A stretch of DNA of 64,000 nt from an uncultured bacterium (GTDB lineage: Bacteria; Armatimonadota; UBA5829): the NCBI GenBank assembly GCA_964611645.1, contig CAZTAO010000012.1, forward strand, positions 44,688 through 108,687. The letters run 5' to 3'. Position numbers and translations under genes: made by a program. The notes under the pieces are model-generated. The model worked only from the letters and a program-made list of their open reading frames with translations, had not been told where the DNA came from and searched no databases. Shown here one piece after another: positions 8,271 to 32,055 of the stretch. The stretch's first letter is position 1, and every line of letters starts with the position of its first letter.

Positions 8271-9389
8271 TCATCCGGATTCGGGGAGCACAAACCAAAA
8301 CGTGCTCCCCTTGCCCACCTCACTGTCCACTCCGATAGAACCACCATGCGCTTCCACCGCCAGCTTGCAGAAGGTGAGCCCCAATCCCGTGGAATATTGG
8401 CGTCGCTGGGTTTGGCCCTGAGCCACCTGCCCAAACTTGTCGAAAATTCGCTCCAGGCTCTCATTGGGGATCCCGGAGCCGCTGTCCTGAACGAACACTC
8501 TCACCCAACCCTCAACTCGCTCCATACCCACACGGATGATTCCGTCATCCTGCGTGAATTTCAGCGCGTTGCCCAGCAGGTTCTGTATCACGCGCGCAAG
8601 CAGCCCGGCATCTGCTGTCACCAAGATCGGCGCTTCCGGCGCCTCAAGAATAAGCTGACGGTTCTCGCGCAAGGATTCCGCGTTGTCCATAACTCCCCGG
8701 ACGATGTCTGCCAGGTCGCACTCTCCCAGCTCCAGGGTCATCTCCCCGGCCTCCATCTTGCTGACGTCCAGCAAAGAACTGATCATATTGATGAGGTTCT
8801 CGGTGGCCTCGGAAGCGATGGCTACGAACTCCTTCCCATCGTCGGACACACACTCCCCCTCCAGCATCTGCAGGAATCCCTTTATGCTGGTCAGAGGGGT
8901 GCGCATGTCGTGCACGACCATGTGCACCAGGCTGTCCCGGAGTTCCTCGAGTTTTCGAAGCTGTTCGTAGCTGTCTTGCAGGAGGGCCCTTTGCCGATGG
9001 AGTTCCAGGTGGGTTGCCACGCGGGCCTGCACTTCTCTCAACTGGAAAGGCTTGGTTATGTAGTCGACCCCACCCACCTCAAACGCCTTGACCTTGTCCA
9101 TGGTCTCGTTGAGGGCGCTGATGAAGATTACCGGGATCTCCGCCAACTGCTCATCTGTCTTCAGCCGCTCACATACCTCGTACCCATTCATCTGGGGCAT
9201 AATGACGTCAAGGAGTATCAGGTCGGGAGGATCGTGCTTTGCCGTCTGGAGGGCGAACTTCCCATCGGAAACGGACCTGACTTTGTACCCCAGATCCTTG
9301 AGCATCCCCGTCAGGAGACGCAGGTTCGCTGGGGTATCGTCAACGACGAGAATATTGGGAACGCGCTGCTGGGCCTGGGTTTTCTCCAA
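8271..9389 (-). CDS. Response-regulator receiver fused to histidine kinase (REC-HisKA-HATPase_c)
   Basis: TTG 9389 has AGGAGA 6 nt upstream. REC: [11 protein letters not shown]...[14 protein letters not shown]...TKPF. H-box: [13 protein letters not shown]-boxes: QDSGSGIP and GLGLTFCK. Confidence 0.9.
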
Positions 9390-9423: not shown

Positions 9424-10539
9424 CTAGTCTGCTTCGGCTAATGTGAAGTAGAATGTGGCTCCCTCATCGACACGGGCCTCTGCCCAGAGTTCGCCCCCGT
9501 GTCTTGTGACGATTCTGTGTACTATTGCCAAACCAACCCCTGTACCCGGACATGCCTTATCCGAGGGCAGATTCTGGAACGGCGCGAACAGATTGATCCC
9601 GCAATCCTCAGAGAATCCGCTTCCGTTATCTTTCACAAAGAATGCCTTGCGCCCGTCGACAACATTCTTGCCGAACTGTATTCTCGCGCGATCGCGGCCT
9701 GCAGTGAACTTCACGGCATTGCCGAAAATATTCTCCAGCACAACCTCAAGCAGATGGCCATCTCCCACGGCAGAGAGTCCAGGCTCGATCTCAAACTCAA
9801 TCACACGATCAGCATGGCCAATCTGCATGCGTTTGCCAATCCGGGTGGCGATCTTGGAAAGATCAACGCTTTGAGTCTGCACGCCTGCTTGCGACACGCG
9901 CGACAGCTTGAGCAGGTCGTCAACAAACTGCATCATGCCATTGGCTTCCGTTCGCACGCGCTTTACGAATGACCGTCCCTGCTCGTCAAGCCGGTCCGCG
10001 TAGTCCTCCAGGAGCACCTGACTCATGCTGTACATCCGCAGGACCGGCGCTCGCAAGTCGCCCGAAATGGCAGCAGAAAATACCTCCAGTTCCCTGTTGG
10101 CAGTTTCGAGCTTTTCGTAGCTCTCCTCCAGGAGGCGCTTCTGCCGATGAAGTTCCAGGTGGGTGGCAACACGCGCCTGCACCTCCGGGAACTCAAACGG
10201 CTTAGTCACGTAATCAACCCCGCCCACTTCGAACGCTTTCACCTTGTCCATTGTCTGGTTCAGCGCGCTAATGAAGATCACTGGGATCTCCGCCAACTCC
10301 TCATCAGTCTTCAGGCGCTGACAGACCTCGTACCCGTCCATCTCCGGCATCATAATGTCGAGCAGGATCAGGTCGGGTGGGGAATGCTTTGCCGTCTGCA
10401 GGGCAAACTTCCCGCTGGAAACGGCTCTGACTTTGTATCCTAGCTTCTTGAGCATCCCGGTCAGGAGGCGCAGATTTGCTGGAGTATCGTCTACAACGAG
10501 AATGCTTGGCATGGGCTGTGGAATACTGGGCTTCTCCAT
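9424..10539 (-). CDS. REC plus histidine-kinase-like protein with a degenerate H-box (Gly replaces the phospho-accepting His)
   Basis: ATG 10539 overlaps the upstream TAA by 1 nt. The REC domain is about 85% identical to that of the 8271-9389 gene. The dimerisation helix reads FSAAISGDLRAPV (GGC codon) where the canonical sequence is S-H-D-L-R-A-P. The ATP-binding boxes (DNGSGF, GTGVGLAIV) are retained. Confidence 0.85.
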   Translation of the reverse strand: MEKPSIPQPMPSILVVDDTPANLRLLTGMLKKLGYKVRAVSSGKFALQTAKHSPPDLILLDIMMPEMDGYEVCQRLKTDEELAEIPVIFISALNQTMDKVKAFEVGGVDYVTKPFEFPEVQARVATHLELHRQKRLLEESYEKLETANRELEVFSAAISGDLRAPVLRMYSMSQVLLEDYADRLDEQGRSFVKRVRTEANGMMQFVDDLLKLSRVSQAGVQTQSVDLSKIATRIGKRMQIGHADRVIEFEIEPGLSAVGDGHLLEVVLENIFGNAVKFTAGRDRARIQFGKNVVDGRKAFFVKDNGSGFSEDCGINLFAPFQNLPSDKACPGTGVGLAIVHRIVTRHGGELWAEARVDEGATFYFTLAEAD

Positions 10540-13271
10540 TATGATTGTGCTCCCGTCTTGATGCCATCCAGCAGGCACTGGTAGTCGAATGCTTCAATGC
10601 AGTTCCTAAGATACTGCGATTTACGCCTGTCGTATTGCTCGACCTCATCCGCAAGCAGCAGCAGTTGGTCGTGGTCCGCATCCATCGCCGCTTCCCCCAG
10701 ACGGGCAGCCAACTCATCGGGCAGCGGCAAAGCGACTTCCTGAACCTGGGCGCATTCCGATCCGGGGATGCAAGCCTCAGCCTCTTCGGCATCTGCCTGC
10801 GGCTCGCTGCTCGGAGCCCCATTCTCTTTGGCAAACGCCAACGCCAAACTCAACGTCTCCTCGAATTCCTTTATCTTGATGGGTTTGGTGAGATACTGGA
10901 AGAATCCTGCCTCCATTCCCTTTTCGATGTCGCGGGGCATGGCATTCGCGCTGACAGCAACTATGGGTATGTGGGCTGTCGAAGAGTGCTCACGAAGGAT
11001 ATGCATCGCGTCGACCCCACTAATGCCAGGCAGGTTGATGTCCATAAGAATCACATCCGGCTGATGCTTGTGAGCAAGTTCGATGCCGGCATTAGCTTCG
11101 ACTGCGGTCAGCAGCCGCAGATCCGCGTGTCGCGCGATAAGCTGCTCCACCAGTTTCATGTTGGCCGGATTGTCTTCGATATAGAGCAGGGTATGAAGCA
11201 CCAAGCCTTCCTGGTAATGAGCATGGGTGACTTCCGGAGGTCCGGCTTTCTCGACTAACAACATCGGCGCGGTGTCAGCGCTGAACTCTATCCAGAACAC
11301 GCTACCCACCCCAACAGTGCTTTCCACCCCAATGACTCCGTCCATAAGCTCAACAAGTCGCTTGCTCATAACCAGGCCTATGCCTGTGCCTTCCTGGCCG
11401 CCGCCCTCTTGACCAAGCCGATTGAACGACTGGAAAAGCTGCGCCACCTTTTCCGGTGGCAACCCCATACCTGTATCCCTGACGCTGATACGAATCCGGC
11501 CCGGCGTACTCGTTGCGTGGGTCACCACTATTGAGCCTCCCTCGCGGTTGTACTTGATCGCGTTGGAGAGTATATTGATGATGACCTGCTTCAGACGCGT
11601 CCGGTCGGCGTGGACAAAGCATGGGGTGTCCATGTGGGGGAATGTGATACTGATACCCCGCTTCTGAACCTGTGGTTCCATCATTGTCTGGATTTCCAGC
11701 ATGATCTCTGCCAATGACACCGGTTCCATCGACAGCGCGACCTTCCCAGACTCTATAATTGCCAGATCGAGGATTTCATTTATCAGGGCCAGCAGGTACC
11801 ATCCCGCCTCAAGAATCTGGCTGATGCTTGCTTGTTGGGAGGACGTCGGCGGAGGGGTGTCGCCTTCCATAAGCTGCGCGAAACCCAGGATTGCGTTGAG
11901 CGGGCTTCGCAGTTCGTGGCTCATGCTGGAAAGAAACTCCGATTTCGCGCTGTTAGCCTTCTCCGCAACCGACTTGGCGTTCGTGAGCGTTGCCTCGAAT
12001 TGCCTCAGCTCCGTAAGGTCGCGGGTCAGTTTGGCGAAGCCGCGCAAATTGCCATATTGGTCTCGGATCGAGGTAAAAACAACATTTGCCCAGAATGTCA
12101 GCCCATCGTTGCGCACCCGCCATCCTTCGTCCCGGAACCGTCCCTTGGCTGCCGCCTCATCCAGGTCGCGTTGTGGCTTGCCGCTCTTGATGTCTTCACT
12201 GGTGTAGAAGATGGAGAAGTGTCTGCCCAGAATGTCTTCGGCGCGATAGCCGTTAATTCTGTCCGCTCCGGTATTCCAACTGGTTACCCGCCCATCAGGA
12301 TCGAGCATCACTATGGCGTAGTCGGTCACGCTCTCTATCATCAGCCGGAAGCTCTCTTCGGTCCATCGAAGCTCATCTTCCACTTGCTTTCGAGCGGTGT
12401 TGTCGGTTCCGATCAGCAGATATCCGATTATTGTGCCTTGTTCGTCACGCAACGCCGTTACCGACACCATCGCGGGAAACCGGCTGCCGTCCTTGCGGAT
12501 ATAGGTGAGTTCGTATATATCTTCAATCCCTCGGGAGGCTTTGAAGACCAACGCCTCAAAACCCGGCTTGATAGGGGTTCCGAGTTCCTGGCTCAACGCC
12601 TCGGCTCGCGCGATTACTTCCTGTGGGTCGGAGATATCGGCGGGCGTAATCTTGTTCATCACTTCGTCTGCCGTGTAACCCAGCATCCGCTCGGCCCCGA
12701 CATTGAATATCTGGATTACGCCCTTTTCATCGGTGGCAATACTGGAGAAGTTGGCGCTCTTGAAAATCGCGTTCTGCAGGGCGCCCGCTTGAAGCAGCGC
12801 CGCTTCCGCCTGTTTGCGCGCGGTATTGTCGGTTCCGATAAGCAGATAGCCGATAATGGCGTCCTGGGCATCGCGCAGCGCTGTGACCGACACAACCGCT
12901 GGGAAACGGCTGCCATCCTTGCGGATGTAGGTCAGTTCATAGATATCCTCAATCCCTCGGGAGGCCTTGAAGACCAATGCCTCGAAGCCCGGCGTAATCG
13001 GCGTCGAGAGTTCGACGCTCAACTCCTTGGCCCGCGCTATCACTTCCTGCGGATCAGAGATATCTGCAGGCGTGATCTTGTTCATCACTTCGGCAGCCTT
13101 GTAGCCAAGCATCCGCTCGGCTCCGACGTTGAATATCTGGATAACCCCATTCGCATCGGTGGCAATGCTCGAGAAGTTGGCGCTGTTGAAGATCGCACTC
13201 TGCAGAGCGCCCGCCTTGAGTTCGGTGCCGATGAGCAGATAGCCGATGATGGCGTCCTGCGCGTCGCGCAA
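10539..13271 (-). CDS. Hybrid sensor histidine kinase, multi-PAS (PAS modules, HisKA, HATPase_c, REC). This is the body downstream of an in-frame TAG.
   Basis: The track ORF begins at an internal TTG. The same frame stays open up to 13352, directly after TAG 13355-13353. H-box: SHELRSPLNAI. G-boxes: DTGMGLP and GTGIGL. REC: LLYIEDNPANM...VILMDINLPG...TKPI. Confidence 0.85.
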   Translation of the reverse strand: MRDAQDAIIGYLLIGTELKAGALQSAIFNSANFSSIATDANGVIQIFNVGAERMLGYKAAEVMNKITPADISDPQEVIARAKELSVELSTPITPGFEALVFKASRGIEDIYELTYIRKDGSRFPAVVSVTALRDAQDAIIGYLLIGTDNTARKQAEAALLQAGALQNAIFKSANFSSIATDEKGVIQIFNVGAERMLGYTADEVMNKITPADISDPQEVIARAEALSQELGTPIKPGFEALVFKASRGIEDIYELTYIRKDGSRFPAMVSVTALRDEQGTIIGYLLIGTDNTARKQVEDELRWTEESFRLMIESVTDYAIVMLDPDGRVTSWNTGADRINGYRAEDILGRHFSIFYTSEDIKSGKPQRDLDEAAAKGRFRDEGWRVRNDGLTFWANVVFTSIRDQYGNLRGFAKLTRDLTELRQFEATLTNAKSVAEKANSAKSEFLSSMSHELRSPLNAILGFAQLMEGDTPPPTSSQQASISQILEAGWYLLALINEILDLAIIESGKVALSMEPVSLAEIMLEIQTMMEPQVQKRGISITFPHMDTPCFVHADRTRLKQVIINILSNAIKYNREGGSIVVTHATSTPGRIRISVRDTGMGLPPEKVAQLFQSFNRLGQEGGGQEGTGIGLVMSKRLVELMDGVIGVESTVGVGSVFWIEFSADTAPMLLVEKAGPPEVTHAHYQEGLVLHTLLYIEDNPANMKLVEQLIARHADLRLLTAVEANAGIELAHKHQPDVILMDINLPGISGVDAMHILREHSSTAHIPIVAVSANAMPRDIEKGMEAGFFQYLTKPIKIKEFEETLSLALAFAKENGAPSSEPQADAEEAEACIPGSECAQVQEVALPLPDELAARLGEAAMDADHDQLLLLADEVEQYDRRKSQYLRNCIEAFDYQCLLDGIKTGAQS

Positions 13272-20238: not shown

Positions 20239-21146
20239 CGCTTCAACTCCGACTCATAGTAGACCCACGCGCTCGAGGCTTTGAGCATCAGGAGCGTGAG
20301 CGCCAGGATCACCAGAAACAGTATCCACGCCAGCGCGCAGGCGTAGCCCATCTTGAGATACATAAACGCGTTCTGGTAGAGGTACAGCACATAGAACAGT
20401 GTGGAGTAGGCGGGCCCGCCCTGGGTCATGACAAAGGAACTGGCGAACACCTGGAAGCTGCCGATTATGCTCATTATCAGGTTGAACAGAATAGTCGGCG
20501 AGATCATCGGCAGGGTCACATTGCGGAACTTGCTCCGACTCCCCGCGCCGTCTATTTCGGCTGACTCATAGAGCTGCGTGGGCACGCTCTGCAGGCCGGC
20601 AAGGTAGATAATCATCCCACCGCCAACTCCCCACAGGCTCATCAGGATGAACGATGGCAGCGCCCACTCCGGGGTGGTCAGCCACGGCACCGGCCCCAGA
20701 CCGACCTTGCCCAGCAGCACGTTCAGAATACCGCCGTACGGCTTGAACAGCATCAGCCACAGCATCGACACCGCAATCGGGGGCAGGATCGCCGGAATGT
20801 AGAATATCGCCCGGAACGCCCGCATGCCCCGCAGGTTCAAATTGAGCAGCATCGCCAGAGCCAGAGAGCAAGCCAGCCCGAGCGGCACCGACAGCGAAGC
20901 GTAGATGAGAGTCACCTTGAGAGACTGCCTGAACCGGAAGTCGTCGGCGACAATGGTGGCATAGTTGCCCATCCCAACAAACTCAGGAGAGTTGATCATA
21001 TCCCACTTGGTCAGGCTGATGATAAGTGAAAAGATCACCGGTCCCACCGTAAGAAACAAAAAACCAATCAGCCACGGCGATATGCAAAGGAACCCCTCGA
21101 TGGCTTCCTTGCGGCGCATCTGTGAAAGTTTGGGATGGTTTGTCAT
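20235..21146 (-). CDS. Carbohydrate ABC transporter permease (CUT1, MalF/UgpA-like)
   Basis: RRKEAIEGFLCISPWLIGFLFLTVGPV is a typical N-terminus. EAA loop: LYESAEIDGAGSRSKFRNVTLP. ATG 21146 lies 5 nt after the SNF2 stop. The track start 21155 is a TTG. Confidence 0.9.
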   Translation of the reverse strand: MTNHPKLSQMRRKEAIEGFLCISPWLIGFLFLTVGPVIFSLIISLTKWDMINSPEFVGMGNYATIVADDFRFRQSLKVTLIYASLSVPLGLACSLALAMLLNLNLRGMRAFRAIFYIPAILPPIAVSMLWLMLFKPYGGILNVLLGKVGLGPVPWLTTPEWALPSFILMSLWGVGGGMIIYLAGLQSVPTQLYESAEIDGAGSRSKFRNVTLPMISPTILFNLIMSIIGSFQVFASSFVMTQGGPAYSTLFYVLYLYQNAFMYLKMGYACALAWILFLVILALTLLMLKASSAWVYYESELKR

Positions 21147-21151
21147 TCTAC

Positions 21152-22615
21152 TCAATCCCTATGTCCCTGCATTTGTGTTGGATGGCGTGATGCCGTTTGT
21201 CTCCGCTTCGGCGGCTGCATATCGAATAGCCCGAATATGTCTGCCTCCGTAAGGTACTTCTGCAGGTCCAGGCAAACGTCGTCAACGTACTCCGAGAACA
21301 GAGCTTTCTTTGCGAGCAGTATCTGCTGGATGCGCTCTTCTATGGTGCCCTCACAGATGTACTTGTAGACGTTTACTCCTCTGGTTTGACCGATTCTATG
21401 CGTCCTGTCCTCTGCCTGAAGCTCACTTGCAGGGTTCCACCACCGGTCAAAGTGAAACACGTAAGAGGCGCTCTGAATGTTCAGACCGACGCCACCGGCC
21501 TTCAGAGACAAGATCATCACGCCCGCCTCGTGGTACTTCGTGAATACCTCAATAGCCTCCTGCCGCTGGTCAAGACCCATGTCGCCTGTGTAAATGACCG
21601 GCGTGAACCTGGCCAGAGCTTTCCGAAGCCTCCTTACACCGAATTCCTCGCTCGTGTACTGAGAGAATATGAGGGCCTTAGCACCCGCTTCGTGGAGCGA
21701 AGCCAAGCGCATTTCGATGTCGTTTAGCTTAGAGGAGCGGCCCGTTCGCAGGGAGAAGTTACAGACTTGTTTGAGCTTGGTTATAAGCGCAAGCACGTCT
21801 GTCACTGTAACGCTCTCGCCCTTTTCGAGAAGCTCTACTCTGCCTTCAGTAAACAGTTGGTCATATTCGTCGCGTTGATCACGCGTCAGTGATACCTCCA
21901 ACTCAGTGATAATCTTTGCCGGAAGCCTTTCGAGAACGTCTGCCTTTTTTCTCCGTAGTTGCACTTGCTGAAGTATGTCCGGTATGTCCGCATCCCGGAT
22001 AGCCGCCAGTCGCCTGCCACCTGCGCCATCTCGCAGGACAAAGGACAATATCGTGCGCAGGTCTTCCACGCTGTTTTCGAGTGGTGTTCCGGTGAGCGCC
22101 CATCGCCTTTGAGAATGCAGTCGCCTTGCTGCCATGCTGACGCCGGAATCGGGGTTCTTGATTCGCTGCGCTTCATCCAGGCAGATCAAGTCCCAGCCAG
22201 GGAAGTCCGGCCTTGGGGCCACCGCAATCCGCACGTCGTTGCGAAGAGTTTCATAGCCAACTATCTTAACGTGAACATCAGACCGCCACTTCCATCTGCG
22301 CTCACACTGCGCACCGCTAATCTCAATGACTCTGAGATCAGGCGCCCACTTGGCGAGTTCGCTCCGCCAGTTACGCAGAATGCCAGCCGGCGCCACTATC
22401 AGGACTCTTTGCAGTTCACCACGGCGGATCAGCAGCCGCATCGCGGCAATGGCCTGGATGGTCTTGCCTAGTCCCATGTCATCGGCGAGAAGGACGCCTG
22501 GCTTCTCCATCAACACGCCTATGCCCGTTTTCTGGAAGCTGTAGAATTCGTCCGGCCACTCGATTGGACCGGACATAGACAAGGAAGTGTCCGGTGGGGA
22601 TTGGAGAATTGTCAC
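21152..22615 (-). CDS. Compact SNF2-family helicase/translocase (cassette gene D)
   Basis: GTG 22615 has AGGA 7 nt upstream. Motif I DDMGLGKT, motif II DEAQRIKN, motif III LTGTPLEN. Helicase-C: SLKAGGVGLNIQ...FDRWWNPASELQAEDRTHRIGQ. I see no accessory domains. Confidence 0.9.
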   Translation of the reverse strand: MTILQSPPDTSLSMSGPIEWPDEFYSFQKTGIGVLMEKPGVLLADDMGLGKTIQAIAAMRLLIRRGELQRVLIVAPAGILRNWRSELAKWAPDLRVIEISGAQCERRWKWRSDVHVKIVGYETLRNDVRIAVAPRPDFPGWDLICLDEAQRIKNPDSGVSMAARRLHSQRRWALTGTPLENSVEDLRTILSFVLRDGAGGRRLAAIRDADIPDILQQVQLRRKKADVLERLPAKIITELEVSLTRDQRDEYDQLFTEGRVELLEKGESVTVTDVLALITKLKQVCNFSLRTGRSSKLNDIEMRLASLHEAGAKALIFSQYTSEEFGVRRLRKALARFTPVIYTGDMGLDQRQEAIEVFTKYHEAGVMILSLKAGGVGLNIQSASYVFHFDRWWNPASELQAEDRTHRIGQTRGVNVYKYICEGTIEERIQQILLAKKALFSEYVDDVCLDLQKYLTEADIFGLFDMQPPKRRQTASRHPTQMQGHRD

Positions 22616-22639
22616 CGCAGTATCCTTGCTTTGCAGAGC

Positions 22640-23905
22640 TTACTGAAGCTCGCTATCGAGTGGTTCTTCTTCTCGTGCCAAGTCGTCGTCTTCGGAGTAA
22701 TCCTGCACCACTTCATCCACCACGACCTCGGGCCTGTAGTCCGGGTTGAGAAGTATGAGGTCCCATTGTGTGATCCAGGACTTGAGGTGCTCGCGGACGG
22801 AACTCGATGCTCCTCTTCTGCAATCGGCTAGGTGGGGCGCTTCCCAACCAAAGGCCACGCAGTGCAGTCGCCGCACACGTTCCTGCAAGTCATCCAGTTC
22901 GTCGGCCTGGGCGCGTCGCAGCCGCATGCTTTTCTTGAGCAGCTTCATTCCCGTCTCCGCCGCGCGAGCCAACTCCTCGTCTCCCGGCCTGCCTCTCGAG
23001 CGCAGCCACGCGGGTATTTCCTCCGAGTCGTTCAACTTGCCGTCCGCATGCTCCCAAAACTCAGCGGCAACAGCGAAGACAGGCAGCAACCCGCAGACCT
23101 GAAAGTCCTTCATCATCCCCGCAAGTCTCGCCACCTGGGCATAGGACTTGGCGCGCTGAAGCCGTGTGTAGCGAAGAATCAGCTCGACCTCATCGATAAG
23201 GACTATCCAGCCGCCGTATCCCGCCGCGCGGAACAGGCGCGGGAGAAACCGCCACAACTGACCTGCCAACTCCTGCTGGCGGATAGCCTTGACACGGTAG
23301 TTCTTATCCTGTCCTATCTCCTTGAGGGAAGCGCGAAGCTCAACTGTCCTCATCGGATAGCCGGACCATTCCATGGCTATCTTGTCCAGCAACTCGTCGC
23401 TTCCAATGGGCCGCTCCTCGAACACTTTGACAATCGGAGCCAGCCTGCTCTCAAAACTCGCGTCTTCATGAACCCACTTGAACAGTTCGGCGAACTCCTC
23501 GGTGTTGGTCTTCAGCGTGAAGAGTATCTCAGGCACCGCGCGCCCGGTCTTGTCGCTCACAACCGCCGTCTCCGCGGCTGACCGCAGAAGCTTCAGTGGA
23601 TTGGAGAGCGCAGTCTCTTTGCTGACAACCACATGGCTGCATACGCAGTGGTGTTCGAATGCCTCGTGACGGAGGTACTCGAGAATGTGCGACTTGCCCG
23701 CGCCGAACCCCCCGGAGACAACAAGCGAGTTCCTGGATGCCGCGCCGGTTGTTGCCGATTCCCTCATATCCCGCAGGAGATCAGCGAACTTCTGGGTCAC
23801 TTCGCCCTGGAACACACCGAGATGCCTGACTGCGTCACGGTTAGGCACTCCGGATCGCAGGGCCTCAATTGCTCTTCTAGCCTGTATCTTGTCACCATTG
23901 CTCAT
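22640..23905 (-). CDS. P-loop ATPase, DUF2791 / BREX BrxC-BrxD-like (cassette gene C)
   Basis: The N-terminal ARRAIEALRSGVPNRDAVRHLGV helix is followed by Walker A VVSGGFGAGKSH and Walker B GGWIVLIDEVE. The C-tail is acidic (DYSEDDDLAREEEPLDSE). The family call is from recollection. Confidence 0.75.
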   Translation of the reverse strand: MSNGDKIQARRAIEALRSGVPNRDAVRHLGVFQGEVTQKFADLLRDMRESATTGAASRNSLVVSGGFGAGKSHILEYLRHEAFEHHCVCSHVVVSKETALSNPLKLLRSAAETAVVSDKTGRAVPEILFTLKTNTEEFAELFKWVHEDASFESRLAPIVKVFEERPIGSDELLDKIAMEWSGYPMRTVELRASLKEIGQDKNYRVKAIRQQELAGQLWRFLPRLFRAAGYGGWIVLIDEVELILRYTRLQRAKSYAQVARLAGMMKDFQVCGLLPVFAVAAEFWEHADGKLNDSEEIPAWLRSRGRPGDEELARAAETGMKLLKKSMRLRRAQADELDDLQERVRRLHCVAFGWEAPHLADCRRGASSSVREHLKSWITQWDLILLNPDYRPEVVVDEVVQDYSEDDDLAREEEPLDSELQ

Positions 23906-23911
23906 GTTGTC

Positions 23912-24889
23912 TTAGCCCGCCCCATCTCTCTCGTCCGCCGCGTGGACCATAGCCGCCAGGAGATTCTGGCAACTCGCGTCGTGAGCCTCGTTCCTTAGCC
24001 TGTTGTTCAATGCGTAGTAGTCTTTTAGCGCTCTGGCCTGACCAGTCTCGAACTCTATCGGAGCGACAGCGCAGATGAGGCAGTGAAGTGTTTCGTCCAT
24101 ACCATCGATGAATTCCCGCAGCACCTCACAGGCATCGAGGAATCCCGCTTTGGTGTAGATGAGGGAAGTCGCATCTTTCGCCGCGCCTCTCGCGCGCTGC
24201 TTGAGCAATGCGCTCAGTTCGAGACCGATAACAACACCGGAACCCGTGGATTTCGCCAGCCAGTGGGTCAGGCTCTTGAACATATCTCTGGCATTGTGCC
24301 GCTCTATCCGCGAGTAGATTCCCAACTTCCGAAGAGCTGCCAGGCTCACTTTCTCTCCCCGAAGCCAGCCGATCAGGATACTCGCGTCCTCAGCTCCGAC
24401 ATCGCGAGGGAAGAACTGGGATGCGCGAATCCTCGCGAGAGCCGTCCGCAGTTCCTTGCACATGCCGTGGTCCCGTATGATCTCTTCATTTGTGGCTCTG
24501 CGTATTGCTGCCGCCAGTTCGTTCTGGGTGCATCCATTGAACTCCGCTATTGCGGCAATGTCTCCCAGTCCCGCTCCCGGAGGCAGGCCATAGTCATGCC
24601 TGGAGAGAAAGCTCTCTGCGTCACTGGTGGCCAGGGCTTCCCAATCTATGGTCCTGGTGATCGCCAGGAGAAGCTGGTCAATCCGGTCGACTCGGGTCTC
24701 GGAAGCAGATACCTGGGCATAGAAGAAGCCACGCTCCCCCGCAAGTTCGCGAATTCCAAAGAGAGTGGAAGAATTTTGCTCCTCATTCTCTGTCAACACG
24801 AGCTTGAACGCGGAGCCACCGTTCTTGATGAAGTCGCTCAGGTAGTACTCGTCGATTACGTTGAGCCAATTGGCAGCACAGGGTACCAT
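23912..24889 (-). CDS. Uncharacterised protein, apparent Walker-A-less paralogue of the adjacent ATPase (cassette gene B)
   Basis: ATG 24889 lies 4 nt after the gene A stop, with GAGG upstream. FKLVLTENEEQNSSTLFGIRELAGERGFFYAQVSASET aligns with LVVSGGFGAGKSHILEYLRHEAFEHHCVCSHVVVSKET. GSGVVIGLELSALL aligns with YGGWIVLIDEVELIL. Confidence 0.7.
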   Translation of the reverse strand: MVPCAANWLNVIDEYYLSDFIKNGGSAFKLVLTENEEQNSSTLFGIRELAGERGFFYAQVSASETRVDRIDQLLLAITRTIDWEALATSDAESFLSRHDYGLPPGAGLGDIAAIAEFNGCTQNELAAAIRRATNEEIIRDHGMCKELRTALARIRASQFFPRDVGAEDASILIGWLRGEKVSLAALRKLGIYSRIERHNARDMFKSLTHWLAKSTGSGVVIGLELSALLKQRARGAAKDATSLIYTKAGFLDACEVLREFIDGMDETLHCLICAVAPIEFETGQARALKDYYALNNRLRNEAHDASCQNLLAAMVHAADERDGAG

Positions 24890-24893
24890 ATTC

Positions 24894-25679
24894 CTACCTC
24901 GCTATCGGGTCAAATCGGACGGTGCAGTAAAGCCGTCGCTGCCCCTCCCGGGTTATGATCTCCAGGACTTTGGACTTGTCCCGTGTTCCGCTGCTTTGTT
25001 CAAAACCTGCTACGTACCCACCGATTTCCAGTTGCTCTCCGGAGAAGTCCAACAGATAGATGTCTCGCACAAACTCCTGCTCGGAGTAGTCGCTGCCTGG
25101 GGCTGCCGATAGCACTTCATACATGTCCTTGAGGAAGATCGGCTTGCCGTGCCACAGCTCTGACTTCTTCAGATTGGCGGAGGCAAGCGCCTTGTACACT
25201 TTGAACAGAGAGCGCAGGAATCTGCCGGCGGGGAACTTGCTGGGCCGCTTCTGTATATCGCGGAGAATGGTCGCCAGTGTCTTGGGGCGCAGACGACTCT
25301 CCATCTTCTTGTCTATCCGCGCCGCAGTCATATTCGCTTCCAGCCTTACAAGCGCGGGGTAGACGTATAGCACGTCGCCCAGCGGGTAACTGCTGACATC
25401 AGCGTCCGCGAGGCCCGAGGCCAGTTCCTCTCTGTATTCGGGTGAACCGAAGTACTCGCCCAGACTCTGGTCTTCCCAAAATGCCCTGAAAGAACGGATT
25501 CCTTCAGCCGCACTCGACAGCGCCTCTTCCGCTTCCGCCAGTTTCTTGTCGATAGTTCGGATTGCGCCGTCACCCAGCATCTTGTGCGAAGATGCCGCCG
25601 CTGCGGCGCCCTTCTTTGCCGCCTTCAAGGTAGGCTCCAAGTCTGCGAGTCCAGCTACAATAGTCTCTTCAAAAGTCAT
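24894..25679 (-). CDS. Uncharacterised protein, no recognisable domain (cassette gene A)
   Basis: ATG 25679 (MTFEETIVAGL...) has GGAG 8 nt upstream. It encodes 261 aa, with a helical Ala/Glu/Lys-rich N-terminus, and is the first gene of the operon. Confidence 0.65.
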   Translation of the reverse strand: MTFEETIVAGLADLEPTLKAAKKGAAAAASSHKMLGDGAIRTIDKKLAEAEEALSSAAEGIRSFRAFWEDQSLGEYFGSPEYREELASGLADADVSSYPLGDVLYVYPALVRLEANMTAARIDKKMESRLRPKTLATILRDIQKRPSKFPAGRFLRSLFKVYKALASANLKKSELWHGKPIFLKDMYEVLSAAPGSDYSEQEFVRDIYLLDFSGEQLEIGGYVAGFEQSSGTRDKSKVLEIITREGQRRLYCTVRFDPIAR

Positions 25680-25751
25680 TGTTTCGTCTCCACACCTCGT
25701 CCAATCCCACAACTTCGGCTCGAACCAACATCATGTCAGTTGAGCGCAACA

Positions 25752-25780
25752 ATCATATCAACACGGCACAATGAAGTCAA
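25752..25780 (-). promoter_or_regulatory. Near-consensus sigma70-type promoter for the four-gene cassette
   Basis: The minus strand reads TTGACT (25780-25775), a 17-nt spacer, then TATGAT (25757-25752). This lies about 70 nt upstream of the gene A ATG, in an AT-richer 145-nt gap. Confidence 0.45.
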
Positions 25781-25824: not shown

Positions 25825-27111
25825 TCATTTATCCCTATGCCTCAGCAACTGGTCGAGGATCGGTTTCAGATTCAGGCAGGCTTCCTTGGCGGACTTCTTT
25901 CCCAGCATTACCAGGTCTAGTTCGTTGCCGATTATCTGGTTCATTTCGGCGTAGCAGGAGACGTGCGGGGTGGCGCGGCCGTATTTGATCATGTCCAGGT
26001 AGACTTTGCGGTTCCTGGGCGGCTCGTTGCGGTCCAGGAAGACCTCCGACTCAGCCAGCGACTTCCTCGTGGGCACCTGGGCGTTTAGGATGGCCTGGTC
26101 GGTCTGGTAGCCTTTTCCGGTCAGCCACTTCAGCACCTCCCACGCCTCGTCCTTGTGCTTGGAGCGGGATATCATAGACCACGCCGCACCGCCGATGAAG
26201 GTGCATCTGGTCTTTGGGCCTTTGGGGATCGGCCCGGCGTCATACTCAAAATCCTTTACTTCTTTCTCAAAGACCAGTTGCGCCGCATACGGGCCGCCGA
26301 TCATCATCCCTATCTTGCCGGAGGTGAACATCTTCCAGTTGCCCTGGCCTGTGGACTCCTCGCGAGTGGGCGCGACGTGATGCTTGTTCACCAAATCCGC
26401 CATCCGCTGGATGCCCTCATAAGCGGCGGGCTGGTCGAGGGTGCAGGTGTTCATGTCCGGGCTGACTATGCTCCCGCCATTTTCATATACGAACAGTTGC
26501 CAGAATGCGATAGACGCCCCCCACTGGTCGGTCTTGCCGTCTCCATCGAGGTCTTTGGTCAGCTTCTTGGCAGCTTCGAGGTAGGTATCGTAGTCCCAGG
26601 ACCAGTCGGGGTAAGGCACTCCGGCTTTGTCGAACATGGTCTTGTTGAAGTAGAGCGCCTCCACATCGACATCGCCGGGGATGGTGTATATCTTGTCGTT
26701 ATACTTCCCCCACCCCTCGATGGCCTCGGGGTAGAAGTCCCAGATATCCCAGTTGTCGCGCTTGATGAATGGGTCAAGTGGCTCCAACAGGCCCTTCGCG
26801 GCCAGCGGAACATACCATTCCGAACTCACGCGGCTGATGTCCGGAGGACGCCCACCCGCCGTGGAAACCATCACCTTCCAACTCAGCCGGTCCCACGTGG
26901 CGATCTCAAGCTCGACCTTGATATTGGGATGAAGTTTCTCGAACTCGGCCAGCGACGCCCGCATGGCCTTCTCTTCTTTGTCATTGGACCAAACAGCCAC
27001 CCGGACCACCGTCTTGCCGGTCTCTTTCTTCCCACAGCCGGGAAGAAGACACACAACCAGGACAGCAGCCAGCAGAAGCCACATCCGAATATGACTGGCG
27101 AGTGTATACAT
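25825..27111 (-). CDS. ABC transporter extracellular solute-binding protein (CUT1 sugar-binding lipoprotein)
   Basis: The sequence has a lipobox (MWLLLAAVLVVCLLPGCGKK) followed by VRVAVWSNDKEE...FEKLHPNIKVELE...GGRPPDI, which is typical of family 1 SBPs. The start is ATG 27111 or 27084. Confidence 0.85.
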   Translation of the reverse strand: MYTLASHIRMWLLLAAVLVVCLLPGCGKKETGKTVVRVAVWSNDKEEKAMRASLAEFEKLHPNIKVELEIATWDRLSWKVMVSTAGGRPPDISRVSSEWYVPLAAKGLLEPLDPFIKRDNWDIWDFYPEAIEGWGKYNDKIYTIPGDVDVEALYFNKTMFDKAGVPYPDWSWDYDTYLEAAKKLTKDLDGDGKTDQWGASIAFWQLFVYENGGSIVSPDMNTCTLDQPAAYEGIQRMADLVNKHHVAPTREESTGQGNWKMFTSGKIGMMIGGPYAAQLVFEKEVKDFEYDAGPIPKGPKTRCTFIGGAAWSMISRSKHKDEAWEVLKWLTGKGYQTDQAILNAQVPTRKSLAESEVFLDRNEPPRNRKVYLDMIKYGRATPHVSCYAEMNQIIGNELDLVMLGKKSAKEACLNLKPILDQLLRHRDK

Positions 27112-27257
27112 ATCACTGGAATTGTAGGGTAGATGGGTATGGGAGGTCAAGTTGGGGGCCAGGCCAACCCCGCCAGTCCTGAGTAGACGCGAGGCGCTGC
27201 CCTGAGCGCAGCGAAGGGAACGAGCGGCGTATCGAAGGACGGAACTGACCAACAGCC

Positions 27258-28016
27258 CTACTCTGCCAATACAGCCCCAGCCTGCTTGGGATTCAGCCAC
27301 TCAGGCCATTTTGTGCCTTTGCTATAGAGCGCTCCATTGAGCTTGATGAACTTCATAGGGTCCAAACGACCAACGCCATCACCAAAAACCTTCAGACCGG
27401 ACAGATCGGCGTCCTGCAGGTTAGCCCGGGACAGATCTACGTTGGTCGCCAGACAATCGAAGCTCGCACCACGCAGGTTGGCGCCATCCCAGATAGTATT
27501 GCTGATAGCCACCTTCTTGATGATCACGCCTGCAAGGTTCGCCCCTCGGAAGGTGGAGTTCGTAAAATCGGTGCCAAGTATCACCACGCCGTGAATCTTC
27601 CCGGTCTGGAACTGTGCGCCGCGAAAGTCGGCTTTGTCAAAGATGCAGTTGCGCAATACAGTACCGACGAACAGCGCCTCCCTCAAATCGGCACCCGTAA
27701 AATCAGCCTCGCTAGCAACCGTATGGTTCGACCTCTCATTGAGTACCACAACACCAAACTGGGCACCACGCAACACCGCCCCCGAGAGGTCAGCTTTCTT
27801 CAAGTCAGCGGCGCTTAGATTGGCCTTTGTGAGATCAGCCCCTTTGAGGTCACGATTGCCGAACTTGGCGAAGCGGAGGTCCTGCCCGGCGAAACTTTCC
27901 CCACCGTTCTGAAGTCTCTTCGAACCGCCCTGCGCTGACTCACCAGTGCGAGTGGAGCATCCCGCACAAATAAGAAGACTCCCAAGAAACAAGCAAAGCA
28001 TTGCTCTTGTGTTCAT
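27258..28016 (-). CDS. Pentapeptide-repeat lipoprotein
   Basis: ATG 28016 (MNTRAMLCLFLGSLLICAGC, lipobox) is followed by runs of A(D/N)L.G repeats (ADLKKADLSGAVLRGAQF..., ANLRGASF..., ANLQDADLSG). Confidence 0.8.
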   Translation of the reverse strand: MNTRAMLCLFLGSLLICAGCSTRTGESAQGGSKRLQNGGESFAGQDLRFAKFGNRDLKGADLTKANLSAADLKKADLSGAVLRGAQFGVVVLNERSNHTVASEADFTGADLREALFVGTVLRNCIFDKADFRGAQFQTGKIHGVVILGTDFTNSTFRGANLAGVIIKKVAISNTIWDGANLRGASFDCLATNVDLSRANLQDADLSGLKVFGDGVGRLDPMKFIKLNGALYSKGTKWPEWLNPKQAGAVLAE

Positions 28017-29349: not shown

Positions 29350-30867
29350 CTACAGCATCGGCGGGGCCTCTATGCCCAGTTCGCTTGCTGCTTCCTTTAC
29401 CAGCTCGTACATCTCGTTTCCGAGTTCGTTGTCCGGCTCTACTTCTCGGCCTTTGGCTTTCTGCGCCTCGACCGACGCCGCTACCCTGTCCAGTATCTCG
29501 GCGGTCTGGGTGTGGTTCTTGTCGTGCTGCGCGCCCGCGGAGAGGCCCCTGTAGAAGAAGGAACTGAACGGAATGCCGTCCTGCATATACTCGATGGTAT
29601 GCTCGGTGGACATGTGCACGCCCTGCTCGAACCTGGCCGCAACGATCTCATCTACTCCCAGGGCCTCATCACTAGCCTCGAAACCGTGAGTCAGCTCCGC
29701 GAACTCCTTGATGATCTCCATATCGATCAACGCCTGCTGGGGGGAGAGCATGTTGCCGTTGCACAGCCCACCGATCTCGGCGAATGTATTGGGCCGGTGC
29801 AAGCCGGAGAAGAACAGGCCATTGAACGCAAACTCATACGCAGCCTGGAGACCAGGTTCATTTGCGTCTCTGTACCAAGTCAGCGGCCAGGCGTCCACCC
29901 CAATGCCCCGCTGCAATAGCTCGCAAAGAGCCAGGTTGCACAGGTGGGTGTGCATCCCCATATAGCTCACACGCGCGGTGCGAAGGTCAAGCGTGCCTGT
30001 GCAGACGTTTCCCATCAGGCCGTAGCCCGGCCTGAGGATTCTAAAGAACGTGAGGGCCGCAAGCACCTCAGCCAGGGCCGTCACCGCGAGGCCCGCGGCA
30101 GTCACTGGCGCGCTCATCCCGCTCACAGACATCGGCCCGATACCCATGGAGTTGCAGATACCAGTATCCACCCTGGCCAGCATCGTCTTGATCCCGCGCA
30201 GCCCCATCCGGAACGGCGGGTTCACATACTCCCACTGGGCCATCGGCTGCTTGGTCCCGCGGTGCTTCTCGTAGACCGACGACATCTTGTCCAGGTAGAC
30301 CACGTGAATCGGCTCGGTCGGCTGCTCGTGGAGGACATTCTTCCGGCAGTGCTTGGCCATCAGCGCGTAGTTGTAGATGGGGGTAAGCCTCTGGTCCACA
30401 TCCTTGAGCATCATCGGGAAGAGATCGCCGATCTGGTCGCAGCCCTGTGCCCAATTGCACAGTTCCACCATATCCTGCCGTGTTGGCCCCTTGGCGGTCC
30501 AGTTGTCCCAGTCGAAGATCAGGTTGCCGCCATTACCCACCCAGAATGCCTTCGGGCAGCCTTCGTCGTTTCTGGCTAACTCTCGGAACGGCTTGGGTAC
30601 GGGAACGGTCTTCACCATCACAGCCATTGTCTCCTCGATCTGCTGTCGGGTGAACATCGCTGCCTTGGCAGGCCAATCGATGCGCGCGCCCTTGCTTTCA
30701 GCTTCCTCCAGGTAGACCTTGCCGCCGTCCTCATCGACCCTCAGGCCGACATTCACCGCCACATCAACGGCTTTCTGCACCATCTCATCAATGGTCCCCT
30801 GGTCCCACGACAGCATACTCGCGTGGTGGGCAACCGGGATGTTCAGATACACTCTCTGCTTTTCCAC
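29350..30867 (-). CDS. MttB (trimethylamine methyltransferase) superfamily protein, non-pyrrolysine type
   Basis: Uninterrupted 505-aa ORF. GMSAPVTAAGLAVTALAEVLAALTFFRILRPGYGLM resembles the MttB-family GG.SPVT.AG...Q..AE.LAG segment. There is no in-frame TAG. Confidence 0.65.
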   Translation of the reverse strand: MEKQRVYLNIPVAHHASMLSWDQGTIDEMVQKAVDVAVNVGLRVDEDGGKVYLEEAESKGARIDWPAKAAMFTRQQIEETMAVMVKTVPVPKPFRELARNDEGCPKAFWVGNGGNLIFDWDNWTAKGPTRQDMVELCNWAQGCDQIGDLFPMMLKDVDQRLTPIYNYALMAKHCRKNVLHEQPTEPIHVVYLDKMSSVYEKHRGTKQPMAQWEYVNPPFRMGLRGIKTMLARVDTGICNSMGIGPMSVSGMSAPVTAAGLAVTALAEVLAALTFFRILRPGYGLMGNVCTGTLDLRTARVSYMGMHTHLCNLALCELLQRGIGVDAWPLTWYRDANEPGLQAAYEFAFNGLFFSGLHRPNTFAEIGGLCNGNMLSPQQALIDMEIIKEFAELTHGFEASDEALGVDEIVAARFEQGVHMSTEHTIEYMQDGIPFSSFFYRGLSAGAQHDKNHTQTAEILDRVAASVEAQKAKGREVEPDNELGNEMYELVKEAASELGIEAPPML

Positions 30868-30890: not shown

Positions 30891-31892
30891 CTACGCCGAT
30901 CCCCTCAGCAGAATGGTTGGTTCAAGGACCGCGCTCTGTATCTCGCGATCAGGCTCGGCCATACGGTTCTTCAGAAACCCCCACGCCATCTCGCACATCC
31001 TCGGCACGGGGTAACAGATGGTGCTCAGCGGTGGGTCGAGATACTCGCCGTCCGGAACGCCGTCGCAGCCGAACAGCGCCACATCCTCAGGCATCCGCAG
31101 CCCGAGGTCCTTCAGGCCCCGGTGCGCGCCGACGGCGTGGGAGTCGCTGGCCGATATTATCCCCTCCGGCGCGCCAAACTCCCCAACATATTCCACAACC
31201 GCCCGCCGGGAAGCCGCGCGGATATCCTCGCCGGGGCCCAGCCTGATCTCTATCGAGTCCAGCCCAAGTCCACTCTCTTCAAGGACCGACTTCAGGGCTG
31301 AAAGAAACTCATCGCCGGTAACATCCATTCCCGAGGTTGCGAAGCTGGCAATCCTCGTGCGCCCCTGCTGCACCAGATGCTCCACCGCCTTGCGCAATCC
31401 CTGGCTGATGTCGAAGCCAACGTGGTCCACGTGGGTCTCGTAGTAGAACCCCATGCTGACAATCGGCGGAGCGTATGACGCCCGCGCCTCAAGCCATTCC
31501 CGCAGGGCGCTTGCGCCGCTGTCCAGCGCCAACACGCCATCCACCGGCCAGCCGGCGGTCCGCTCGGCGCGAAGTCTGGTTCCATAGAAGAACCCCAGGT
31601 TACTAATGAGCATCTCCAGCTTCTCGGCTTCCAGAATCTTCTGCACGCTCTCCGCAACCAGCACTTGAAAAGCAGTCAGCCCACCGACCCAAAGCCCGAT
31701 CACCCCGGTCCGACCCGTCGCCAAAGCCCGCGCCGCCCGGTTGGGCACATACCCCATCTCCTTGGCCGCAGCAAGCACCCGGACTCGGGTAGCTTCGGAG
31801 ATGTAGTTGTTGGTCCGCCCATTGAGCACCCGCGAGACAGTCGCGTGCGTAAGCCCAACCTGCTTGGCTATGTCTACAATCGTGACTCTCAA
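30891..31892 (-). CDS. LacI family transcriptional regulator
   Basis: HTH: VTIVDIAKQVGLTHATVSRVLNG...YVPNRAARAL, followed by a periplasmic-binding-like fold. TTG 31892 lies 8 nt after GGAGG. The alternative start is GTG 31910. Confidence 0.85.
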   Translation of the reverse strand: MRVTIVDIAKQVGLTHATVSRVLNGRTNNYISEATRVRVLAAAKEMGYVPNRAARALATGRTGVIGLWVGGLTAFQVLVAESVQKILEAEKLEMLISNLGFFYGTRLRAERTAGWPVDGVLALDSGASALREWLEARASYAPPIVSMGFYYETHVDHVGFDISQGLRKAVEHLVQQGRTRIASFATSGMDVTGDEFLSALKSVLEESGLGLDSIEIRLGPGEDIRAASRRAVVEYVGEFGAPEGIISASDSHAVGAHRGLKDLGLRMPEDVALFGCDGVPDGEYLDPPLSTICYPVPRMCEMAWGFLKNRMAEPDREIQSAVLEPTILLRGSA

Positions 31893-32055
31893 GAGCAGTG
31901 CCTCCTGCACGGTACACGTGTACCGGAATAGGATAGCATTGGGGTCCGGGGTTTGTCAATGCGTCCCTTGCAGGTTCGTGTGGCTAGTGCTATTATAGGT
32001 GAGCCACATGCCGCCGTGATGGCATATTTGCTGGAGAGTGAAGGAGTTATACGCC

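Follow-up and report, generated by a model that had tools for sequence, protein, structure and literature searches.

A 64,000-nucleotide stretch of contig CAZTAO010000012.1 (hereafter the window), from an uncultured bacterium of the Armatimonadota lineage UBA5829, carries a cassette of four minus-strand genes, here called A to D, between positions 21152 and 25780. Comparison with relatives in metagenomes indicated that this cassette is a reduced form of a widespread, unnamed operon with the gene order A-B-C-E-D, of which A is the signature protein. The operon family is apparently undescribed and is built on a known theme, the combination of an AAA+ ATPase with a superfamily 2 (SF2) motor and a nuclease. 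On balance, we lean slightly towards reading the operon as an anti-phage or other defence-type system.

Architecture and distribution of the operon family

A sample of 80 metagenome loci (referred to by L numbers) was fetched, and synteny fractions were calculated over the loci with enough sequence. The gene after A was B in 58/59 loci, C lay downstream of A-B in 41/41, and an SNF2 gene was present downstream in 22/22. The synteny of A and B with a BrxD-type ATPase and an SNF2 helicase, on which a first-pass annotation of the window had staked the novelty of the cassette, thus recurs elsewhere and leaves that novelty standing. With a single peptide pattern, at least 587 loci were confirmed on metagenome contigs, and Armatimonadota-type search patterns yielded 7 loci among 185,579 species-representative genomes.

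The order A-B-C-E-D, with an N-terminal extension on D, was found in 20 of the 21 complete metagenome loci; the remaining one (L053) had a minimal A-B-C-D arrangement with a D of 492 amino acids (aa). In L019–L021, A was followed by a fused B-C gene and a 478-aa D. Neither L053 nor L019–L021 has E, the D extension or the C-terminal Mrr nuclease domain of D, and these three are frequent rather than universal features of the family. Full operons of the Armatimonadota clade were L001, L003, L005, L016 and L017. The window shows the same succession of A, an inactive-type and then an active-type BrxD-family ATPase, and an SNF2 gene downstream. The first-pass annotation, which took these four genes for the unit, had mis-delimited it, since the usual form has five genes, including an E with a predicted endonuclease V (EndoV) fold and a D in which SNF2 and Mrr are joined. 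In metagenome-assembled genomes (MAGs) labelled MFD01112, frameshifts were observed that split B, C and D (L018, 1432–6665) and E and D (L007, 13088–15264); these could be pseudogenes or sequencing errors.

In the window, the coordinates of the four co-directional genes and the gaps of 4, 6 and 24 nucleotides (nt) between A and B, B and C, and C and D, respectively, were confirmed by direct reading of the sequence:

25752–25780, minus strand: sigma-70-like promoter match (TTGACT-17-TATGAT with upstream TG, 10/12 matches), about 73 nt 5' of A
25679–24894, minus strand: gene A, 261 aa; ATG start consistent with homologues
24889–23912, minus strand: gene B, 325 aa
23905–22640, minus strand: gene C, 421 aa
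22616–22639, minus strand: C-D spacer, 24 nt; relatives have E (often with toxin-antitoxin genes) and the 5' end of D here
22615–21152, minus strand: gene D, 487 aa; GTG start

The motifs first quoted for C (GGFGAGKSH, WIVLIDEVE and an acidic C-terminal tail) and for D (DDMGLGKT, DEAQRIKN, LTGTPLEN and QAEDRTHRIGQ) were all found, and the four open reading frames (ORFs) are intact and keep their conserved catalytic motifs. Each gene had been credited with its own Shine-Dalgarno sequence; this is so for B and D (GAGG/AAGGA type), while that of C is weak and G-rich. The near-consensus promoter reported about 70 nt before A is present as a sequence, although promoter-like sites were no more frequent in the region than in shuffled sequence (4 vs. 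3.3 ± 1.5), and it is therefore treated as a consensus match only.

Proteins encoded by the operon

Scans of protein A against the Pfam, PADLOC and NCBIfam families gave no match. When 69 members of the A family were scanned against Pfam, no family occurred in more than two of the 69 and all matches were weak (best E = 8.6e-4). A word-indexed search returned 55 clusters of A homologues, 51 of them 50–100% identical to A; those named among the 55 were Armatimonadota MAGs and one labelled Deltaproteobacteria. A profile search of 1.84 billion representative proteins yielded 754 clusters of relatives at E ≤ 1e-3 and 521 at E ≤ 1e-10, and a second one returned Nitrospirae, Chloroflexi, Gemmatimonadaceae, Peptococcaceae and Deltaproteobacteria MAGs, all of the proteins being annotated as 'hypothetical' and free of Pfam domains. 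The earlier description of A as an orphan was therefore wrong, because 754 representative clusters across several phyla match it; the earlier remark that it has no recognised motif agrees with the family scans. The AlphaFold2 (AF2) model of A was confident (predicted local distance difference test score, pLDDT, 90.1; predicted template-modelling score, pTM, 0.79) and consists of a long N-terminal antiparallel helical hairpin followed by an α/β region. Foldseek searches with this model retrieved nothing significant (best E = 0.24 in PDB and 0.07 in BFVD), and the modelled fold appears to be undescribed. Designed helical bundles, found by comparing the sequence profile with PDB, covered the N-terminal hairpin only and were rejected as compositional matches. 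A DNA-binding or adaptor role for A would be our guess.

C matched PF10923 (BrxC_BrxD) at 73 bits, in agreement with its first description as a DUF2791/BrxD-like ATPase, and among the PADLOC models it matched BrxD at 53 bits and SngB at 32 bits (E = 1.7e-8). Its Walker A (GdFGxGKSH) and Walker B (LLiDEvEL) motifs were conserved in 34 orthologues, and with both motifs kept it is predicted to be an active-type BrxD-family AAA+ ATPase. A search for solved relatives of C produced only a weak match to DnaA (E = 0.075). B was a weak match to BrxD, scoring 20.9 bits in Pfam (cut-off 22.2; E = 2e-4 to 2e-6 overall), with E = 2e-6 in PADLOC and 2.5e-6 in NCBIfam; its orthologues in L001, L003, L016 and L017 carry precomputed PF10923 matches. 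The B family consensus contains no GK[ST], and D-I replaces D-E, in line with the first description of B as a Walker-A-less ATPase paralogue. BrxD is classed as an ORC/Cdc6-type AAA+ ATPase (PMC12839542), and B is predicted to be a catalytically inactive BrxD-family paralogue with a degenerate P-loop and Walker B. In L019–L022, B and C form a single polypeptide of 752–766 aa with B at the N-terminus, and the half of this fusion that derives from B is matched by the BrxD model of PADLOC. Such fusions support a heteromer of B and C.

The assignment of D as an SNF2 helicase was upheld by matches to SNF2-rel_dom (PF00176; 163 bits) and Helicase_C. The best match in PDB was 1z63, a Sulfolobus SNF2 core (E = 4e-61, residues 40–445), and the best in PADLOC was ZorD (275 bits), the DpdE and DrmD models also being among the best. 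Window D aligns to residues 98–561 of the 678-aa L003 protein and is 59–63% identical to the SNF2 cores of its Armatimonadota relatives. In the longer forms, the N-terminal extension measures approximately 90–210 aa (about 120 in most loci), and a C-terminal Mrr_cat domain was detected in 15/21 complete metagenome loci (64 bits vs. PF04471 for L003). The D...QxK motif of Mrr was intact in 15/15 distant Mrr-bearing loci and in L017. Full-length D aligns to positions 442–1059 of the 1071 positions of the ZorD model PDLC00631, spanning both the SNF2 and the Mrr parts.

The conserved protein E, about 185 aa long, is encoded between C and D in the common form of the operon. Pfam and PADLOC scans assigned it to no family, and no solved relative was found. 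The top 16 Foldseek matches of its best AF2 model were endonuclease V (E = 8e-7 to 3e-5, TM 0.45–0.59), followed by Argonaute PIWI and UvrC endonuclease domains, all of them of the EndoV-type RNase H fold, and from this model E is predicted to have an EndoV-like fold. GEPxEF, D64, E94 and EPFxR are nearly invariant. In every case, E and the N-terminal extension of D were both present or both absent, and because they always co-occur, E probably docks on this extension.

The window copy in a transporter operon

The cassette splits a sugar ATP-binding cassette (ABC) transporter operon, with the binding-protein gene upstream and the permease genes downstream, and copies of a direct repeat lie exactly at both ends of its 4.68 kb:

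25825–27300, minus strand: solute-binding protein gene (SBP_bac_1, 151 bits); likely start near 27111 (lipoprotein signal sequence)
25831–25847: upstream copy of a 17-nt imperfect direct repeat (14/17 identical), at the binding-protein stop codon
21155–21171: downstream copy of the same 17-nt repeat; gives the last D codons, just before the permease start
21155–20235 (probable ATG at 21146) and 20238–19378, minus strand: two permease genes, with BPD_transp_1 in both

D ends in GHRD-stop, mirroring the RHRDK-stop of the binding protein, because the repeat copy supplies the final D codons; its stop codon lies 5 nt ahead of the probable permease ATG. The repeat, which is short, in two copies and suggestive only, could reflect target-site duplication or microhomology, left by insertion into what had been an ATGA stop/start overlap. 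The cassette contains no integrase gene. On the L015 contig the same binding-protein C-terminus is found upstream of A, and the insertion is thus common to the window and L015. Comparison of A with its 89%-identical relative from L015 gave dN (nonsynonymous divergence) = 0.061 and dS (synonymous divergence) = 0.71, i.e., a dN/dS of 0.086; A has been under strong purifying selection since insertion.

The window copy lacks the E gene and the first ~97 codons of D, and this deletion maps to the C|E junction; tblastn of the window revealed no trace of E. Window D also lacks Mrr, being cut at the repeat beside the permease gene. No terminator lies between the cassette and the permease genes, and the window copy shows a cassette settling inside a transporter operon without breaking it. 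A role of the cassette in regulating or assisting the ABC transporter was considered and rejected, because the operon has unrelated contexts in nearly all other loci. In another Armatimonadota lineage (L005, 5843–9775, and L006, 1–495), the operon was again observed directly 3' of ABC-transporter genes, consisting of an 867-aa binding-protein/permease fusion and a second permease.

The losses could also mean that the copy in the window no longer functions and is decaying, a remnant whose nuclease half was removed by an insertion or deletion and whose other genes persist since its promoter and read-through transcription serve the permeases, an explanation that overlaps partly with the defence reading. 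Every other Armatimonadota-clade locus with D differs from the window, which is without E, the extension and Mrr; the final D codons derive from duplicated junction sequence, relatives occur with decayed Mrr sites or with A-B-C alone, and the cassette sits inside the transporter operon with no terminator before the permeases, all as expected of a remnant. Arguing against such decay are the four intact ORFs and conserved catalytic motifs, the strong purifying selection on A (dN/dS 0.086), and a minimal architecture that arose or persisted independently in L053 and L019–L021, and we regard it as unlikely. Since the minimal form recurs independently in these loci, A-B-C with a bare SNF2 core would be viable.

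Elsewhere, the 64-kb window consists of ordinary chromosomal DNA, encoding RecA, CinA, RNase Y, histidine kinases and sugar enzymes. A recent tandem duplication is indicated by two neighbouring paralogous genes of response-regulator type whose N-terminal receivers are nearly identical (8271–9389 and 9424–10578, minus strand). Further upstream than the transporter genes are a gene of the MttB family (trimethylamine methyltransferase-like) and, next to it, one for a LacI-type regulator (29350–30867 and 30891–31910, minus strand).

Function and relation to known systems

A defence role is suggested by the nearest sequence relatives of C (BrxD and SngB) and of D (ZorD, DpdE and DrmD), all of them defence proteins, and by an Mrr nuclease and a putative EndoV-fold protein in most copies. 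The operon is patchily distributed, its genomic context differs in almost every locus, and toxin-antitoxin-type pairs were found inserted between C and E in at least five loci, among close as well as distant relatives:

L001 12795–13411 and L018 3820–4436: Phd/PIN pair (PhdYeFM and PIN)
L017 3449–5279: PhdYeFM and PIN, also ParE and HicB
L032 7324–7967: DUF433 and a partner
L070 8700–9400: unannotated small pair
L016 13050–14522: toxin-antitoxin-type genes

Pairs of PhdYeFM with ParE are also among the insertions. The C-E junction looks like an intra-operon hot spot, and the combined deletion of E and the D extension in the window maps there. Of 148 ORFs flanking the operon at up to 5 kb in 28 loci, approximately 10 matched defence models, vs. 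2 weak matches among 45 window ORFs; in some loci these neighbours were of type I restriction-modification, DNA methyltransferase, MADS-like or AriA-like kind. The enrichment of defence genes beside the operon, which the first-pass annotation had proposed to check, is modest. Upstream of the operon in L001 (267–8424), genes for ThiF (E1-like), Multi_ubiq, small ORFs, an HTH_XRE protein with a 321-aa partner, HD/HD_assoc_2 and PRiA4_ORF3 were observed, a region that may be a defence island with a ubiquitin-like conjugation system. In the open-access full-text literature searched, no description of an A-B-C-E-D operon was found, and neither A nor E has a model in PADLOC v2 (2023). As to the initial proposal of a candidate undescribed defence-type system, its novelty appears to stand, with no known system complete and no description found in the literature searched; its defence role is putative, and the neighbourhood signal is weak.

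A number of findings weigh against this reading or against parts of it. Most neighbours of the inspected loci are metabolic, and the modest signal from defence-type neighbours has the 45 window ORFs as its sole control. A PADLOC scan of these 45 other ORFs at E ≤ 1e-10 gave weak mad2 and CARF/LolE-type matches only, and the window locus is not a defence island. A tblastn search with a distant A homologue as query had no match in 72,556 plasmids or 50,697 phage records, and a scan of viral contigs found no member of the A family. The window copy is without any nuclease-type module; the first-pass statement that there is no nuclease holds for this copy and fails for the operon family, which commonly has Mrr on D and a predicted EndoV-like E. 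The Mrr QxK motif is mutated in several Armatimonadota relatives, and in this clade the nuclease domain appears, from these substitutions, to be decaying. L011 and L014 have A-B-C only, with no E or D; in these and in L085 the putative sensor half (A-B-C) may stand by itself, or the motor gene may lie at another site in the genome. The loci concerned are as follows:

L001 13937–15985: D gene with mutated Mrr motif (RCL)
L016 15343–17322: D gene with mutated Mrr motif (RCV)
L003 13548–15584: D gene with mutated Mrr motif (QCR)
L011 10001–13036 (OW818698.1, 8.2-Mb chromosome): A-B-C only; two unannotated ORFs follow
L014 347–3388: A-B-C only; a fumarase gene follows
L085 7869–11089: A-B-C; no E or D in about 1.1 kb after C, minus-strand ORF only

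The effector half thus looks labile in the Armatimonadota clade, where it is maybe dispensable or decaying. Alignment of B with C by hhalign was weak (E = 0.02, probability 2%), and the paralogy of the two accordingly rests on the matches to BrxD hidden Markov models (HMMs) and on the gene fusions. For E, the best AF2 model had a pLDDT of 81 and the other four of five were poor, and the canonical first catalytic (β1) Asp of the RNase H fold is not conserved.

Instead of defence, the operon might serve as a housekeeping or stress-related DNA-transaction machine, in which an ATPase-loaded SNF2 motor would act in repair or in the remodelling of replication forks or transcription complexes. Such a function would suit the high conservation across phyla (A 40–50% and E at least 66% identical in the top 120 clusters), the exclusively chromosomal locations, the presence of RecA, CinA and RNase Y in the window, an EndoV/UvrC-like fold of E that is typical of repair enzymes, and the dispensability of Mrr in many lineages. 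It fits poorly with the rarity of the operon (the 7 loci found with Armatimonadota-type patterns in 185,579 species-representative genomes), with close relatives that lack the D half, with a context that changes in almost every locus, with toxin-antitoxin genes inside the operon, and with defence proteins as the nearest relatives of C and D. We consider a housekeeping function improbable.

Read as a defence system, the operon may work as follows. B (inactive) and C (active), both ORC/Cdc6-like AAA+ proteins, would act as a pseudo-dimer, made as one polypeptide in some genomes, and would constitute, together with A and its novel fold, an ATP-dependent DNA sensor or loader. The A-B-C complex could then recruit or license D, the SNF2 translocase of double-stranded DNA, on foreign DNA. 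In the full system, in which D carries an Mrr-type PD-(D/E)xK nuclease and its extension probably docks the EndoV-fold E, translocation would go hand in hand with DNA cleavage, comparably to ZorD or the type I/III restriction enzymes. The window copy would, in the presumed order of events, have been inserted between the binding-protein and permease genes and have lost E, the extension and Mrr; if active, it might use its motor to evict or block replication or transcription complexes, or rely on a nuclease provided in trans.

A more far-reaching version, which we think distinctly unlikely, is that the operon represents a new immune-system family in which a BrxD-type ATPase pseudo-dimer and A license an SNF2 motor, and in which the nuclease-free form still protects. 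If true, immunity could be conferred by a motor alone, which would strip off or stall replication or transcription complexes instead of cleaving DNA; the BrxD-helicase dyads of type-2 bacteriophage exclusion (BREX) systems and Shango would thereby gain a general mechanism. The window copy bears on this, namely on whether the ATPase and SNF2 half works without a nuclease, and the natural variants (fused B-C, presence or absence of E with the D extension, and presence or absence of Mrr) amount to a built-in dissection. Should the operon prove to be an immune system, it would be one with members in several phyla and at least 750 protein clusters, and invisible to current annotation, A and E being 'hypothetical' everywhere.

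That no described system fits, as first claimed, was borne out: no known system was complete at the locus, and no BREX, Zorya or Shango partners were found in the 64-kb window. PglX, PglZ, BrxC, PglW and ZorA/B/C were likewise found neither in the window nor in the conserved operon of the 80 loci. The operon shares with type-2 BREX (Pgl) a stand-alone BrxD-family ATPase (PF10923) accompanied by an SF2 helicase. In type-2 BREX, BrxD and the helicase form a tight dyad, a known defence theme, and a role in loading or activating the helicase has been proposed for BrxD (PMC12839542). The helicase of the operon is of the SNF2 type, whereas BrxHI of BREX is Ski2/Lhr-like (described as Ski2-like in PMC12839542). 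Against the NCBIfam BrxD equivalog, C scored 54 bits and B 27 bits vs. a cut-off of 350. The BREX components PglZ, BrxC/PglY and the PglX/BrxX methyltransferase (PAPS, i.e., phosphoadenosine phosphosulfate, reductase for type 4) were not encountered in the window or the conserved operon, which has instead a duplicated ATPase (inactive and active) and the proteins A and E, for which BREX has no counterparts. The BREX-related 'BR' systems (PMC12839542) were also considered; they are centred on DUF499 and a methyltransferase, and hence do not correspond to this operon.

Shango resembles the operon in being compact and in combining an accessory protein with a BrxD/DUF2791-type ATPase and a helicase. 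Its SngA has a TerB domain, whereas A gave no TerB or SngA match in PADLOC or Pfam, among the weak matches listed for the 69 family members, or in PDB. C matched SngB more weakly than BrxD (32 vs. 53 bits), placing it in the same superfamily and not clearly as an orthologue, and SngC did not appear among the best 25 of the 43 PADLOC families matched by D, which included ZorD, DpdE, DrmD, BrxHI/HII and HmaA. SngC is mentioned in passages of papers on HamB, the Ski2-like helicase of Hachiman; D is an SNF2 protein. Shango differs further in lacking a second, inactive ATPase, an EndoV-fold protein and an Mrr fusion.

D is closest in sequence to ZorD of type I Zorya, and full-length D aligns with both the SNF2 and the Mrr-like parts of a ZorD model. 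ZorD is reported to carry an Mrr-like nuclease domain and to target DNA (PMC11890865). D is without the ~440-aa N-terminal part of ZorD, matching only the C-terminal two-thirds of ZorD models, and reached 173 bits against the NCBIfam ZorD equivalog vs. a cut-off of 1500. Window D, unlike ZorD, has no nuclease, and the MotAB-like motor ZorA/ZorB and ZorC were not found in the window or the conserved operon. The SNF2/Rad54-like core of Sulfolobus solfataricus (1z63) is similar to window D in being a minimal two-lobe translocase core for double-stranded DNA, of about 500 aa; this archaeal protein has no known membership in such an operon and is uninformative on partner proteins.

That the operon is a divergent member of a named system, be it an accessory module of type-2 BREX, Shango or a ZorCD module of Zorya, is very improbable. 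Such a relationship is hinted at by the matches of C to the BrxD and SngB models, by ZorD as the best PADLOC match of D, and by the tightly linked BrxD-helicase dyad of type-2 BREX (PMC12839542). It is contradicted by scores far under the cut-offs (BrxD, 54 vs. 350 bits; ZorD, 173 vs. 1500 bits), by a helicase of the SNF2 type where BrxHI is Ski2-like (PMC12839542), by the missing TerB-type protein, with no TerB match in 69 members of the A family, by the absence of PglX, PglZ, BrxC, PglW and ZorA/B/C from the window and the conserved operon, and by A and E having no PADLOC model. Read as a defence-type system of its own, the operon extends to a further family the recurring pairing of a BrxD-type AAA+ ATPase with an SF2 helicase that is seen in type-2 BREX and Shango.

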